Shown here piece after piece: positions 51,814 through 59,016 of a DNA stretch of 64,000 bases. The notes beneath the pieces are model-generated. The model searched no databases and was not told the DNA's origin. It saw only the letters and a list, made by a program, of their open reading frames with translations. Each line of letters begins with the position of its first letter. Positions within the stretch are counted from its first letter, which is position 1. Origin of the DNA: Xylographa opegraphella (taxonomy: Eukaryota). The stretch is from assembly GCA_022813865.1 (NCBI GenBank), contig JALDZX010000059.1, forward strand, positions 1-64,000, given 5' to 3'. A program made the position numbers and the translations under genes.

Positions 51814-54074
51814 ATGGCAAGCAAACGATCGCGTCAAATCTACGAAGCAGATCTTCCAGCCCACGAGTCGCCGTACGTGGTGTACGGCACCCCACTACCA
51901 CCGGCGGACCAAGATGTTCGTGATGATGGTTCCTATGTACCGATTTGGAAACAGGAGGTCACCGATGATCGTGGGAGGAAGCGTCTACACGGAGCCTTCA
52001 CTGGCGGCTTTAGTGCAGGGTAGGCTTCTTGTACCAACTATATATAATTTCTGTTGATTGCGTTTTCAGCTATTTCAACACTGTTGGCTCTAAGGAAGGC
52101 TGGACACCATCCGCGTTCGTTTCTTCTAAGTCAAGTAAGAAAAAAGGCGTTGCAACTGTACAGCAGAAGCTTGAGGATTTTATGGACGAAGAGGATATTG
52201 CTGACACGGAGGAGTCGAAAAATCTGGAAACTTCGGACTCCTTTGTGGGTCTTGGATCGACCGAAGGGGACTTGACCCGGCAGAGCACCTTTATGGACAT
52301 CCTAAAAGTGAGCGGGGAAACCATGGGAGTGAGATTACTGCGGAGGATGGGCTGGCGAGACGGACAAGGCATCGGCCCTAAAGTGCGGAGAGGGGCAAAG
52401 CTGGCAGATGGTGAAGAGATAGGACTACCTGAGGGCGAAGAAATGCATCTTTTTGCACCTGAAGACTCTTATATGGTATCTTTTGGCTGGAAGAACGATC
52501 GTAAGGGCCTCGGCTATCAAGCAGAAGAACGACTTATAAACAATACAATCGACACCGGAAATGGAGATCTCGATACCGCCGCAGACGAATACCATATCAC
52601 GGAGATATCCAAGTCAATGAGGAGAACCGAAGCCCCACGAGGCGGCTTCGGTATGGGCATATTAAATGACAACGGCTCGGATGAGGAAGACCCCTATCAT
52701 ATGGGTCCCCAGATATCTTATAATCGAGTTGTCAGATCCGATAAGAAGAAGAAAAGGAACGCGGAGAACAGGAAACACCTTGTCACTGCTTCAAATCCCC
52801 TGCTTCGCTCCAAACCTGTCTTCATCTCCAAAAAAACCCTCAATTCAAAGGCCCGCGACCGTCTTCGCCGCGGTCATGATGGTCGTCTTCCTCTCGAAGG
52901 CTTTGTCCTCTCAAGCAAGGGGGCGCCCAAATTCGAGAACGTGTCTATATTACCCACACCTGAAGTCCCCAAAGATTGGAGATCTTCCAAGACTCCAAGG
53001 TCAGCCGCTCAACTTACCAGGGAAACTTCCTTAACATACCAGTCCTTCGCGAACCTCGCCCGATCCTCTGCTCTTAACCCTGCCGCCCGCGCAAATATCC
53101 TAGGCGAAGCGCCCTTGCCCGGCAAATCCGTCTTCGACTATCTCACCCCCACCGCCCGTGCCCGTCTAGCAATCGCGACGCAGAACCCCAATCTACCAGC
53201 CGCCTTAAATGAACCCCCCCCATCAGATTACAAAGCACCTCAGTCGCAGCGAAACCTCGGTCTCGGCTCCATTATCCCTTCTCTTGACACTACCATTGCA
53301 GCCACCGCCCTTGATCGCGGTATAGGAGGCTGGTTGCCCTACGCCGAAGATGCTGCGAAACGTACTCGCTACCGCTCCTTTCTTGAGGTGCATGCTGGTC
53401 TCCGTGAGGGCCTTCCGTCACGGGCTGAAGGCATGAGTACGGATGACTGGGTAAATGAAATGCGAGAGTTCACACACGCGGCACAGATTTTCAAGCCCAT
53501 GAGTGGCAGGATGGCTGAACGTTTCACATCCGGCACTTCTACTACCACGGATTCTGGGGCGACAAGTTCAGCGCCGCAAACAGATAAGGAGACTCTGCCC
53601 TACACGAGTGCGCCCAAGCCTATCGATCCGGCAGAAGAGGCGGCCCGAGTGGGAATGTATGGTCCGCTAACGCGCTCGTCGATGCAGTTCTTCCCCATGC
53701 GATTGCTATGCAAGCGCTTCAATGTCAAGCCGCCAGATCATGTACTGACAGAGCCCGGTGGTATGCCACCTGCAGGTTCGAATCCTGTTGGTGCCAGTGC
53801 GGGTGCTGGGTCCGGGTTCGGAGGAAGATTCCAATCAAGTGGTTATCAAACTTCGACGAAGAGTCTGGAGCTGGTAGGGAAGAAGGAGATGGAAGAGCTG
53901 AGGAGAGAGAATGGGCAGCCATTCGGGGGGACAGAGGCGCACGGTGGCGGGACGATGAGTGTGGTGGAACCTACGGTGGTTAATCCTGAAAGAATCGAGG
54001 CGCTGGAGAAGAAGAGGCCGGGACAAGCGGTTTTCAAGGCGATATTCGGGAGTGACAGTGAAAGCGATGACTGA
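51814..54074 (+). CDS. G-patch domain protein, GPATCH1/TGH-like (DUF1604), 2 exons
   Basis: [46 protein letters not shown]-patch [37 protein letters not shown]. Confidence 0.92.
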
Positions 54075-54332: not shown

Positions 54333-55544
54333 TCAACGCAAGCCAATGACACTCTGCGTAACGGGTCAGCATTCATGGCTTGTAACACAAGTAAAGAGCT
54401 TGTTGGGGATCAGCTCACCATCTCAAGTGTCCAAACGCGTCGAATCCACACTTTCAACCTTTGACCTTCCATACCCTCCACGTTGTCCAGTTCTATACCC
54501 TCCCACCAACACCTCCGCGCCGGCTTTCTCCAAAATAGCAAGAGCTTCTGCGCCATTCCTACGGCATTATTACTTGCAGGATCGTTAGTATTGCCTCGAA
54601 TATCCGTCCGTAGCCGTGCAAGTGCCAGACTACATATCACAGCTTTATTGGGTTCACCTGCGCGATGACCCCACCTATCATCGTTGTTGAAGCCCCTGGA
54701 GAAGTCAGTACGTGTCAAGGCTTGAAGAACAAAGGACGACGCATACCCTGCGGTCAGCATTTCGATGAGGTGCTGCTCCGTAGTGCCAGAGTCTTCGCTT
54801 CGTTTCAAGCCTGAAAAGATACCATCTTGATCAAGCAGAGCTCTTCCAGCCGCCCTTTTGACCTCAATCATTTCCGGCTGTTCAATGTCTGCTTTCGGAG
54901 GTATAGCATAGAAGTCCAGGTCTTCCCTTAGAACGATAATGCCGGCTCGATCCTGAAGCATGTCACGAGCTGAGCCAGCCATCGATGGCTCAATAGCAGA
55001 TGGAGGGTGCGGAATGTTGGGCGCTTCGGATGATGGTGAGGGCGTGCTGGATGGTATGGTCTGAGCAACATTCCGGAAGAATTCGAGCATGTATTGAAGA
55101 GAAACGGGGTCGTACTATGACATATCACTATTAGCGGATATGACAGATTTATATGAGGAAGCTACTGCATACATCAACAGGATATACATCGCCTTCGTGA
55201 AAAGAGTTCATATGTCCATCTGGAAGGAGTCCATTCGGGAAAAGCGATAGAAGAACGAACTCGGGAAGTGTAAGCAGCTCATCCCGAGACAATGTGAATC
55301 TTGTACCCCTGTTTAAATGCTTAGCCGGTCCAGCTGCAGCATGATAAGAAGATTTACCTCAGGTCCAGCGTGATGTGCTCATCGGCGCCCACATCTGCAA
55401 GGTCTTGTCAGTCATGCTTTATGTCACCCCTAGTACTATCGCCACTCCAACTCCTTATATCATACCTCCGAGTGTATTGACCGGCGCCGGAGCTCCTTGC
55501 TGGACCTGAGTGATAATACTGGCGGCCCCACCAGCAGCAGACAT
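54333..55544 (-). CDS. WHI2: Whi2 (BTB/KCTD-like Psr1 phosphatase activator), multi-exon, AUG-initiated form
   Basis: MSAAGGAASIITQVQQG; LRGTRFTLSRDELLTLPEFVLLSLFPNG; IIVLREDLDFY; EQHLIEML; KLLLFWRKPARRCWW..VWIRRVWTLEM|SVIGLR*. Confidence 0.9.
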
Positions 55545-56089
55545 TACGTAGGTAAATCCGTCGAGTGGGCTCGAGCCTTCGGTGTATGGAGGTGGAGGTT
55601 CTCCCTCGTCAACACCTTTTGTATCCCGTGGTAATGCAGCTTTTACCTCTACCTCCGCGGCTGATAGGAAAGTGAAAGGACCGTTGGACAGTGGTGCCGG
55701 CGCGAAGGAAGAAAGGGTGGACGGATCAGGCTCAGTCACACAAGCCTTTGCCTGATCGACGACAGTGTCGGCGGGAGCCGGCGGGAAGTATAGAGATGAG
55801 AACGGTGGCGGTAACGTCGAAGTCGGGCTCGAGGACGAAGAGGGTGCTGGGCCTGGGTAAGCAGGTTCTGGATCAAAGTTTGGTGCGTAGTCCCGTGGAG
55901 CTTCTCGACAGGAACCACTCTCGTCGGCTGGCTGGAACGGAGCACAGGTTTCTCTTTTCAAGACCTCACTATCGGACACGGACGAGCCGTCACTTGAATC
56001 CCGTTTGACCGACAACTTGAAGAGCTTGCTTGCGGCGGATGCTCGTCCTGTATTTCTTGATGATCACAATGTATTATGTCAAGCTGAGT

Positions 56090-56193
56090 TCAGGGCGTCG
56101 ATGTAGTCATTCGTTCCTGTGCCTTCAAGTGCAATTAGGACAATGGCGAAGGTAATGTGCTTTCGTGGTCATGTCCCTTGGTGTGGAGGTCAT
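56090..56193 (-). promoter_or_regulatory. Two candidate uORFs in the WHI2 leader (56193-56125, 22 aa; 56110-56090, 6 aa)
   Basis: MTSTPRDMTTKAHYLRHCPNCT* and MTTSTP* read directly on the minus strand. The transcription start is not known. Confidence 0.5.
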
Positions 56194-57733
56194 TGCTGCT
56201 TGTTCTGTTAAATTGGAAGTTCAGGGAAGCTTATTGACGGCTCTTTCCTTAACAGCGGCTAACTAGGTAGTTGTTGATTCTACGTAGTACAGACTTCACG
56301 CTTGCTAAAAGTAGCAGTGATCAACCATCTGGCGCCGGTTTTGCACTTATCGACTATCGTATCCGCCGTCATCGTGAAGCAATGACTAGAATTCCCGTGT
56401 GTAAACGAAAGGGATGAGCAACACACCATGTCTTCGCTTTATTTCCATCCTACGTCAACTTCTATGTCGCCGTTGTTTTTGTGCAGGAAGTCTATTGTAA
56501 TTCCCGGTGAGGCAAACTATGGACAGCTGGAGGAACATCAAACTTCTGTATTCTGAAATCGTGCGTATATCTACGCCGCTGCTCTCTATCTTCCTCCCAA
56601 AGCTCTTCGAAACCACACGACCGATCAATTGCTAGGGTTTCCTCAATAATAATCTTCTTCCAGGGTCCTTGTTATCTTAGACCTCGAACATCTGTAAGTC
56701 GCTCGAGGGTTACGGCACATAGACATACGTGATGTTACAGTACAAGATCAAGAGGTAATTCTAGTGGGTCGTCTTTTTAGCATTGTGTGCATCCCCGGGT
56801 TTGAAACTGTTTTCCAGACTCTGCAGTGCTTTTGACATACCCCAGTAACTGCACAACCTCCTCTCGGGCATGCAGTGCTTTGGCATTGTCGCCATCTATA
56901 AGATATACCGCTCTAGAACATGAGTTCCAATTATGAATCGGATTTGAGACTGGAGCTCGAAAGGTTTACGCTCGCGCGTTCAATGTTCATCGGCATTGGC
57001 GAGGAGTTTGAGTTACGTTGGTCGCTCGCGGTGTTTCAAATGCCAACCCTGTCGGTCATGATTGGTACAGAGGCTCTTTGCGAACCAGATACCAGATGGG
57101 TAAGCTAAAATATCGTACGCCCCTTTAAATCCTGCTTCCAATGGAAGTCTTGCTCTTTCTCGATCAGGATAGGTTCATGATTGCAATACTCAAGCCTTTG
57201 ACGAAAAAACTGCTAGCAGGTGAGGAAGACTGAGAAAAGATGCAGATTAGTACAGATTAGATAATTCTCAAGCATCAAAGAACGCGGCAACAAGATGCAG
57301 TGGACTTAAAACTTCGATGTGCACATATCCTCCCGGATTTGTTTCGAAACCAATAGGACTAGGATAGCGAAGCATCTCAGTGAGGGTCTGGTCTTGAACA
57401 CGAAAATTCAAGTGAGATTGGAATTGGTTGATCTTTTCGGAAAAGGAGCATGGTACTCCGTACGTACTCCGGCAATATCAATGTCAAATGTTCATCTTCG
57501 AAAGTATAAAACTTCCGCATTAGGGGTCCAGCGGGAAAAAGTGCGCCCGGTATATGGAGGTGCTAGTCTAGCCGTCAGGGCATGGATCTGCGCCGCAATT
57601 CGAGGTCAAACCTCATTCTCTCTCTGTAGCGGCAGCACATATGAATAGATCTCATAGCACAATGTCCTGACTCCTTAAGCTTATCAGCTCATAAGTGACC
57701 ACCAAGTTCACTTCCACAGGACCAGGTGCGAGG

Positions 57734-59016
57734 ATGCTGAACCAGCAGCAGCATGTCTTTTCCCACCAACAGCAATACCAGTCCGACCCTAGTTGGTTGC
57801 ATCAACAGCAATCTCATCACCAGCAGCCGCATCATGGTCACATAAGTCACCAGCACGCCCAGGCTCAAGCCGCCGCTGCCGTCGCGGCTGTAGCGCAACA
57901 GAATCACTACAACCGGATAGCTGCCAGTAACAATAACAATAATGGACACGGGCATGGTGGCCATACTCTCGGCTCTGACACTTCATTGACAAGCGGAGTT
58001 GACAATAATTTTACTGATGAAAATAGGAGAGTTTTGGGCTGGGTAGCTGAGCTTTTGAATGGGAATTCCAGAGAGACCGCCTTGATGGAGCTGAGCAAGA
58101 AACGAGAACAGGTGCCCGAGTTGGCACTGATTATATGGCACTCTTTTGGTTAATTAATTCGTTCGTATTTGCTACCAGCAGCTAACTGTGTTCTTACAAG
58201 GTGTTATGACTTCGCTACTCCAAGAGATCATATTCGTTTACCCACTCCTGAACCCTTCCCAGCTCACTGCTGCTGCGTCAAATCGGGTATGCAACGCGCT
58301 TGCTCTTCTTCAATGCGTTGCATCACACAACGAAACCCGAGGGTTATTTTTGAGTGGTAAGTATGAGGAGCTTCATTATGTTGATATTTTGCTAATACCA
58401 GTGTTGAGCTCATATTCCCTTATTCTTGTATCCATTTCTTAATACTACCTCAAAATCCCGTCCATTTGAATATCTCCGCCTTACTTCACTTGGGGTAATT
58501 GGAGCCTTGGTAAAGAACGACTCTACAGAAGTGATCAACTTCTTGCTCACAACAGAAATCATACCATTATGCTTGCGGATCATGGAGACAGGATCAGAAT
58601 TGAGCAAGACCGTGGCAATATTCATTGTGCAGAAGATACTGCTTGATGATCTCGGGCTGGGATATATTTGCCAGACTTATGAGAGATTCTACGCTGTAGG
58701 CACCGTGCTGAGCAACATGGTTACCCAGTTAGTAGAACAGCAAACTGTACGCTTACTCAAGCACGTTGTTCGTTGTTTTCTTCGGTATTATCAGCCTGTT
58801 CGATTAGTATTGAAAGATCATTTAAACTTATACTCTGCCAGGCTTAGCGATAACGCACGAGCTCGCGAGGCACTTCGCCAGTGCCTACCAGAACCCCTAC
58901 GAGACGCTACCTTTCAGTCTGTCCTTCGCGATGATGCGGCTACTAAAAGATGTCTCGCTCAGCTTCTCATCAATCTCTCCGACAACATTGTCGACACCGG
59001 GAATCAAGGAATGTGA
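57734..59016 (+). CDS. CAF40: CCR4-NOT subunit Caf40/Rcd1/Not9, multi-exon
   Basis: [72 protein letters not shown]; His/Gln-rich N-terminus. Confidence 0.95.

Follow-up and report, generated by a model that had tools for sequence, protein, structure and literature searches.

A probable non-AUG-initiated long isoform of the fungal growth and stress regulator Whi2 with a conserved PPxY motif in its N-terminal extension

Where does translation of the WHI2 mRNA begin? The question is raised by a 64,000-nucleotide (nt) stretch of Xylographa opegraphella DNA (contig JALDZX010000059.1, positions 1 to 64,000, hereafter the window), the minus strand of which carries a gene that is, as judged by its sequence, WHI2 of a Xylographa-like lichen-forming ascomycete, encoding a predicted Whi2/KCTD-like BTB protein. 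The exon 1 frame of this gene is open from position 56063 down to a stop in intron 1, and its first ATG is found only at 55544, below 519 nt or 173 codons (56063–55545) of open frame. A preliminary description of the locus had proposed that ribosomes enter this frame without an AUG, with the TTG at 56015 as a candidate, and thereby produce a long form of Whi2, which would recruit Rsp5 and be under translational control. Comparison with related loci strongly supports the non-AUG-initiated long form itself on four counts, namely the protein-like evolution of the added sequence, the lack of an in-frame AUG, the conservation of an NTG codon with a purine at −3 and the near absence of AUG in any frame from there to the internal AUG. 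We consider it probable that WHI2 encodes a UUG-initiated long isoform of 462 amino acids and, by leaky scanning, an AUG-initiated isoform of 305 amino acids, of which only the former would contain a PPxY motif.

The gene has five introns, all of the GT..AG type and 49–71 nt long. Its spliced product has 462 residues when counted from the TTG at 56015, with the first Met at residue 158, and 305 residues when counted from the AUG at 55544. The longer product aligns gaplessly, at 92.4% identity, with residues 27–488 of a Xylographa soralifera gene model (P0001), and the TTG corresponds to L27 of that model. The top protein matches of the exon 1 frame come from Xylographa species (84% identity), and other matches carry the names ‘general stress response protein Whi2’ and ‘WHI2-like protein P4H10.16c’. 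The core of the protein aligns to its C-terminal end (…WIRRVWTLEMSVIGLR), as an ortholog of Whi2 or WHI2-like proteins should. A Pfam scan restricted to three single-exon pieces of WHI2 matched no family; Neurospora crassa WHI-2 is reported to contain two BTB/POZ domains by InterProScan.

The leader seen in the window agrees with what the preliminary description had reported: the 519 nt lack ATG in all frames, two short AUG upstream open reading frames (uORFs) lie just above, the TTG at 56015 has an A at −3 (AAG TTG), and the quoted protein motifs (PPPFSSLYF, EVKAALPRDTK and the PPxY motif EPPPPY) are all in frame. The ATG-free span extends further, up to 56110. ATGs of the minus strand are located at 56328, 56193, 56172 and 56110, and the next one is that at 55544, which leaves 566 nt free of ATG in every frame. 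Mononucleotide shuffling gives a mean of 6.5 ATGs and a probability of 0.0005 of finding none in such a run. No other ATG-free run on its strand is as long, but runs of 548–562 nt are present elsewhere in the window. Taken from the window alone, the run is thus suggestive but short of decisive; it is the comparative data that place it far beyond chance.

For this comparison, 80 genomic loci (L001–L080) were obtained from one scan of metagenome contigs, giving 81 sequences with the window. Intron-free contigs were sought among the 80 loci and none was found, all of them being genomic. Each of the 81 DNA sequences carries EPPPPY, EPPPAY or EAPPPY: the pattern EPPP[PA]Y caught 74 loci and the window, and the remaining six loci have EAPPPY. 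The extension was examined in three protein alignments (A1, A2 and A4) and in DNA blocks of 22 codons ending at the conserved Met, in which six codons were set by the search pattern and the others were free to vary.

The extension aligns with proteins of Lecanoromycetes, Eurotiomycetes, Dothideomycetes, Leotiomycetes and Sordariomycetes. Across 63 distinct 22-codon blocks, the pairwise differences at codon positions 1, 2 and 3 amount to 0.121, 0.058 and 0.524, respectively. PPPFSS, K141, L144 and D147 are invariant or nearly so across the alignments, and EPPP-Y and the Met are invariant, the Met in A1, A2 and A4 as well as in 63/63 distinct blocks. On this comparative evidence, the extension evolves as protein and is real coding sequence, conserved in at least five classes of ascomycetes. 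An alignment of WHI2 upstream regions had been suggested as a check in the preliminary description; it finds the frame, the PPxY motif and, as detailed below, the near-cognate codon conserved across relatives. An AlphaFold2 model of P0001 calculated with 60 sequences has a mean predicted local distance difference test (pLDDT) score of 52. Residues 1–212 display no secondary structure and have a pLDDT mostly below 50, including the surroundings of the PPxY, which is therefore predicted to be disordered and accessible. Because the fold begins only near residue 216, neither start would cut a domain.

In 71 of the 81 sequences the frame is closed upstream by an in-frame stop, and in ten it runs to the end of the contig. 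Between this upstream limit and the conserved Met, no sequence contains an in-frame ATG (75/75 with EPPP[PA]Y and the six with EAPPPY). Six EPPP[PA]Y loci were missed by the pattern used for the Met; in these, the Met is located shortly downstream, with no other in between. In Sordariales relatives, as many as about 290 residues of extension precede the conserved Met without another Met among them.

A near-cognate codon marks the 5′ edge of conservation instead. At the site picked with peptide patterns, NTG was found in 46 of 49 distinct sequences (TTG in 31, GTG in 12 and CTG in 3), and the nucleotide at −3 is a purine in all 49. In the 24 sequences whose preceding codon was not constrained by the pick, position −3 is likewise always a purine and is A in 20, against a background of 17% A at codon position 1. 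T occupies +2 in 48/48 sequences and G occupies +3 in 45/48. Just upstream of the codon, third codon positions are conserved, with C at −7 in 41/48 and at −4 in 37/48 sequences, compared with a background of 39% C. This conservation of third positions upstream of the NTG points to a constraint on nucleotides and not on protein, and thus to a border between leader and coding sequence. One of the sequences counted as lacking NTG (L028) is a mis-pick, as its homologous ITALS site is TTG. As far as comparison can tell, the 5′ edge of the extension is marked by a near-cognate codon that is conserved and has a favourable context. An extended context, mCC ACC nnC Rnn, is discernible at −12 to −1, ACC occupying −9 to −7 in some 40 of the 48 sequences; it tracks the start codon, not the downstream protein block, and the window has CTC at this position.

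The stretch between the NTG and the Met is almost devoid of ATG in any frame: a single one was observed in 43 distinct sequences, compared with 78.2 expected from codon-order shuffles, and the downstream exon contains 23.9 ATGs per kilobase (kb). Near-cognate codons are depleted as well. TTG accounts for 12 of the 354 Leu codons of the extension (3.4%) versus 13.4% in the downstream exon, and CTG for 19 of the 354 (5.4%) versus 21.2%. Because both codons are depleted elsewhere in the extension, the TTG at the start site does not reflect ordinary codon usage, and competing weak starts inside the extension seem to be selected against. GTG makes up 10% of the Val codons in the extension versus 18% in the downstream exon.

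As judged by comparison, then, (i) the extension is translated, (ii) an AUG is unavailable for this, (iii) an NTG preceded by a purine at −3 lies at the 5′ edge of conservation, and (iv) an AUG desert separates it from the conserved Met. The exact initiation codon, the production of both isoforms and a WW-domain partner such as Rsp5 are what we infer beyond these points. In the scanning model of initiation, two isoforms arise when a weak UUG precedes an AUG-free track that leads to an in-frame AUG. In WHI2, scanning ribosomes would first meet the near-cognate UUG at 56015 with its A at −3, and a fraction of them would initiate there and produce the 462-residue isoform, the predicted disordered 157-residue extension of which carries RDSSDGSS, PPPFSSLYF, ETKAALPxDTK and the PPxY. 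Ribosomes that pass the UUG would continue through 471 nt that selection appears to keep free of AUG in all three frames, and would then start at the conserved AUG at 55544 to make the 305-residue isoform, which lacks the PPxY. The WW domains of Nedd4/Rsp5 ligases have PPxY as their standard ligand. The motif of Whi2 would most likely dock the WW domains of a Nedd4-family ligase (Rsp5/HulA), in which case only the long form would be linked to ubiquitylation, whether it is itself a substrate or serves as an adaptor. The elements of this proposal are listed in Table 1.

Table 1. Elements of the WHI2 leader, extension and gene in the window
Feature	Position	Strand	Remarks
uORF1, ATG, 22 codons, TGA; peptide MTSTPRDMTTKAHYLRHCPNCT	56193–56125	−	Second in-frame ATG at 56172
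uORF2, ATG, 6 codons, TGA; peptide MTTSTP	56110–56090	−	Last ATG before the 566-nt ATG-free span
In-frame TGA closing the WHI2 frame upstream	56066–56064	−	
Candidate near-cognate start TTG of the long isoform	56015–56013	−	ctc ttc AAG TTG tcg, A at −3
N-terminal extension, 157 codons	56015–55545	−	Pro/Ser-rich, predicted disordered, ATG-free in all frames
Ser/Asp block RDSSDGSSVSD	56003–55971	−	Directly 3′ of the start site; (T)RDSSDGSS or DSDGSS in many loci
Motif PPPFSSLYF	55811–55785	−	P85–P87, F88, S89 and S90 invariant in A1, nearly so in A2 and A4
Motif EVKAALPRDTK	55649–55617	−	Position by codon counting; K141, L144, D147 and K149 invariant or nearly so (A1, A2, A4)
PY motif EPPPPY (PPxY)	55601–55584	−	P156–P158 and Y160 invariant in A1, A2 and A4
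Conserved Met, proposed start of the 305-residue short isoform	55544–55542	−	First AUG past the uORFs; tac gta ATG tct
Rest of WHI2	54333–55466	−	Exon 1 ends at 55466; further exons 55394–55358, 55308–55173, 55114–54747, 54695–54419 and 54353–54333 (stop included)

Several observations weigh against this proposal. To begin with the start codon, the NTG count is partly circular because the peptide patterns used to choose the start column demand L, V or F, and the sequences are related, not independent. Two loci depart from the rule, one with CTT at the site and no NTG (L064) and the other with TTC at the site and a TTG four codons upstream (L080), and in the stop-bounded locus L063 no site matched the patterns, though a GCA TTG is present. 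In the MAFFT alignment, the GTG or TTG of the ‘VDSD’ and ‘KLDPE’ groups of sequences falls four codons downstream of the ‘LS’ TTG, and the NTG is thus a feature of the edge of conservation and not one strict column. The window TTG itself has no ACC at −9 to −7 and is followed by T, not G, at +4, and no stable hairpin that could boost initiation was found downstream of the NTG (mean z 0.2; 0/48 sequences below −2). As for the two products, the conserved block FTYVMAAAGGAASIITQVQQ spans the internal Met, which may therefore have been retained for reasons other than initiation, and an HA-tagged whi-2 expressed from its own promoter reportedly complements the N. crassa deletion. For this species, transcription may start inside the extension. 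Binding of the Whi2 PPxY to a WW domain, finally, is drawn from established knowledge of the motif.

The locus with CTT has close relatives (L030, L058 and L069) with TTG at the site, and an in-frame stop lies five codons upstream of its CTT. It has either lost the long form or uses another codon, such as the ACG that follows the stop.

The explanation that survives best beside the one above adds a layer of control to it. The uORFs would set the ratio of the isoforms by delayed reinitiation, as in cpc-1 and GCN4: a ribosome that acquires its ternary complex late would skip the UUG, and phosphorylation of eIF2-alpha would shift the output to the short form. We regard this as possible but less likely than not. 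Of 45 distinct loci for which 200 nt or more of upstream sequence is available, 35 have an upstream ATG no more than 150 nt from the NTG. The nearest uORF has at most six codons in 23 of those 35, and similar mini-uORFs recur inside clades. There are 7.1 ATGs per kb at −200 to −1 compared with 18.8 per kb at −600 to −201. However, ten of the 45 loci have no upstream ATG within 150 nt, one of them has none in 475 nt, and neither the peptides nor the positions of the uORFs are conserved between classes. The uORFs are, moreover, read from genomic DNA, including the two of the window, both of which are out of frame with the extension, and their presence on the mRNA is putative. In five Dothideomycete-like loci (L008, L011, L012, L013 and L033), a minimal uORF consisting of ATG and a stop is located 60–79 nt upstream of the GTG or CTG.

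Only one product might matter to the fungus: either the long form, with the AUG as a harmless landing site, or the short form, with the long one as a by-product. The conserved motif across the internal Met and the complementation by the tagged construct mentioned above speak for this idea, as does the treatment of a form of 297–298 residues as the protein in the N. crassa studies. We nevertheless judge it unlikely. Strong purifying selection acts on the extension with its motifs, which argues for a functional long form. Over about 440 nt, 43 sequences are almost free of out-of-frame AUGs, and the Met is invariant; the two observations together argue that the internal AUG is reached and used by many ribosomes.

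Initiation could, alternatively, be spread over several near-cognate codons at or above the NTG (ATC, ACG or other NTGs), as in cpc-1, at least four near-cognate codons of which are reported to initiate in vitro (PMC5487733). ATC and/or ACG stand right before the NTG in many loci (acc ATC ACG TTG), loci of the Eurotiomycete type have a second TTG five codons upstream, and L080 retains just the upstream TTG. The NTG is, however, much better conserved than the codons adjacent to it, as its nearly invariant +2 and +3 positions attest, and NTG codons are depleted in the remainder of the extension. Two AAG codons, which are among the weakest near-cognates, are all that the window offers between the upstream stop and the TTG. 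We thus think it quite unlikely that initiation is dispersed in this manner.

The alternative that the preliminary description itself had raised is a standard AUG in an upstream exon that has escaped notice, spliced to an acceptor above the conserved block, which in the window would be the CAG near 56048. GT-AG joins that would provide such a product do exist in the window, and to this extent the alternative stands: an ATG at 56448 could be joined through a donor GTGTGT at 56426 to an acceptor ending at 56048, with an intron of 379 nt, and an ATG at 56895 through a donor GTATGT at 56840, with an intron of 793 nt. Automatic gene models of relatives, P0001 among them, also include upstream exons of this kind. 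Nevertheless, not one of all 155 GT-AG joins in the window has a CTRAY branch site 8–50 nt before its acceptor, and these joins would require introns of 100–1484 nt compared with the 49–71 nt of the gene's own five. The N-termini predicted for relatives vary from species to species. The comparison is equally unfavourable to this alternative at the level of DNA. The sequence above the NTG reads CC ACC nnC Rnn and not a pyrimidine tract followed by YAG, in several loci an in-frame stop occurs as near as 4–8 codons above the NTG, and in four loci a 3′ splice site between the stop and the NTG is impossible because this interval contains no AG.

Transcript-like sequences of relatives point in the same direction. 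Of 22 open reading frames (ORFs) derived from single short contigs, 21 have all introns removed and retain the extension in frame, which places the extension on the mature mRNA of those relatives. The three ORFs that are shown with their literal first residue (L, V and V) contain no Met above the conserved one. The remaining single-contig ORFs begin with M, the codon underlying which is not visible; the genomic match (L014) of one of these, P0032, has TTG there. Furthermore, 12 NCBI models marked as partial have a first residue other than Met and no Met above the conserved one, that is, the start Met is absent from them entirely. Considering all of these data, we find an upstream spliced AUG very improbable. 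Creation of an AUG by RNA editing can be rejected, as adenosine-to-inosine conversion cannot turn the first base of UUG, GUG or CUG into A.

The difficulties that automatic annotation has with this gene are apparent among the 120 best matches, of which 43 are at least 650 amino acids long, many being fused to domains of neighbouring genes. The annotated N-terminus of P0001, MTTKTIKAHYSRNYPNCT, resembles the peptide of uORF1 in the window (…MTTKAHYLRHCPNCT*), and the gene predictor apparently took a uORF as a first exon. In the window, uORF1 ends in TGA, and by reading there is no GT after it before 56067.

On the plus strand, a long open frame with a stretch resembling a G-patch (a label given by eye) occupies positions 52014..54074, in tail-to-tail orientation to WHI2. 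Many annotations of Sordariomycetes merge WHI2 into a ‘G-patch domain-containing protein’ of 1100–1260 amino acids (PF01585, PF07713). The divergent upstream neighbour of WHI2 is an open frame at 57695..58153 of the plus strand with a Gln/His-rich start, which we take to resemble the start of a protein of the Rcd1/CAF40 type.

Whi2 is a central regulator of growth and stress. Chen and colleagues are said to have reported in 2018 that it negatively regulates TORC1 under low amino acids. If the long isoform exists, the protein studied in model filamentous fungi (297–298 amino acids in N. crassa) is the shorter of two products, and the unstudied part holds the best-conserved linear motifs of Whi2, including a putative docking motif for a ubiquitin ligase. 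It would also account for WHI2 annotations that are over-long, fused, partial or furnished with invented 5′ exons, and would be a clean example from nature, conserved over great evolutionary distances, of initiation at UUG, GUG or CUG ahead of a scanning track that lacks AUG. A further idea, which we regard as speculative and unlikely, is that the WHI2 mRNA acts as a sensor of start-codon stringency. The ratio of long to short form would then vary with the balance of eIF1 and eIF5 or with eIF2-alpha phosphorylation in nutrient stress, switching Whi2 between an Rsp5-coupled state, in which it would be degraded or act as an adaptor, and a free state, and tying translational stress to the restraint of TORC1 and to mitogen-activated protein (MAP) kinase and cell-fusion signalling across Pezizomycotina.

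Pairs of isoforms that arise from a weak non-AUG start and leaky scanning are known from yeast ALA1 and GRS1 and from human PTEN-L, FGF2 and MYC. The proposed arrangement of WHI2 is similar in that an upstream near-cognate codon adds a module and a downstream AUG gives the standard form. In those genes, however, the extensions are usually mitochondrial, nuclear or secretion signals, whereas that of WHI2 is a predicted disordered region with a PPxY. The type of mechanism is thus already known, and WHI2 would be a new case of it. A search that left subscription journals and bioRxiv supplements outside its scope turned up no paper describing either a non-AUG start of Whi2 or a PY motif in it, and one study of Whi2 mentions Rsp5 just in passing. 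WHI2, whi-2 and NCU10518 are absent from the examined supplements of PMC7049704 and PMC5487733, and WHI2 is unnamed in the text of the latter.

S. cerevisiae Whi2 and N. crassa WHI-2 have an orthologous core, putatively of the BTB type, in common with the window protein. The N. crassa work describes WHI-2 (NCU10518) as a protein of 297 or 298 amino acids that is required for cell fusion and MAP-kinase signalling; this length fits the short form, which has 305 residues in the window. The phosphosites S103–S111 of Aspergillus nidulans AN10545/WHI2, as given in PMC8399174, fit by counting the Ser-rich linker of the short form and have no bearing on the extension. With respect to the PPxY, the WW domains of Rsp5 interact with PPXY-containing proteins, Sna3 being an example (PMC2171029). 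Whi2 resembles such Rsp5 partners in that its PPxY is located in a predicted disordered stretch, a likeness drawn here from sequence.

The closest parallel is N. crassa cpc-1, in which near-cognate codons give rise to N-terminal extensions (Ivanov et al. 2017, PMC5487733). WHI2 is like cpc-1, as described there, in having an AUG-less extension of the frame that is conserved in Pezizomycotina, conserved near-cognate codons and a leader that, in WHI2 by prediction, contains uORFs. The two differ in layout: cpc-1 has a leader of more than 700 nt with several usable near-cognates and two well-characterised uORFs, whereas WHI2 has one dominant NTG, about 440–470 nt of AUG-free sequence up to the conserved AUG, and uORFs that vary between lineages.

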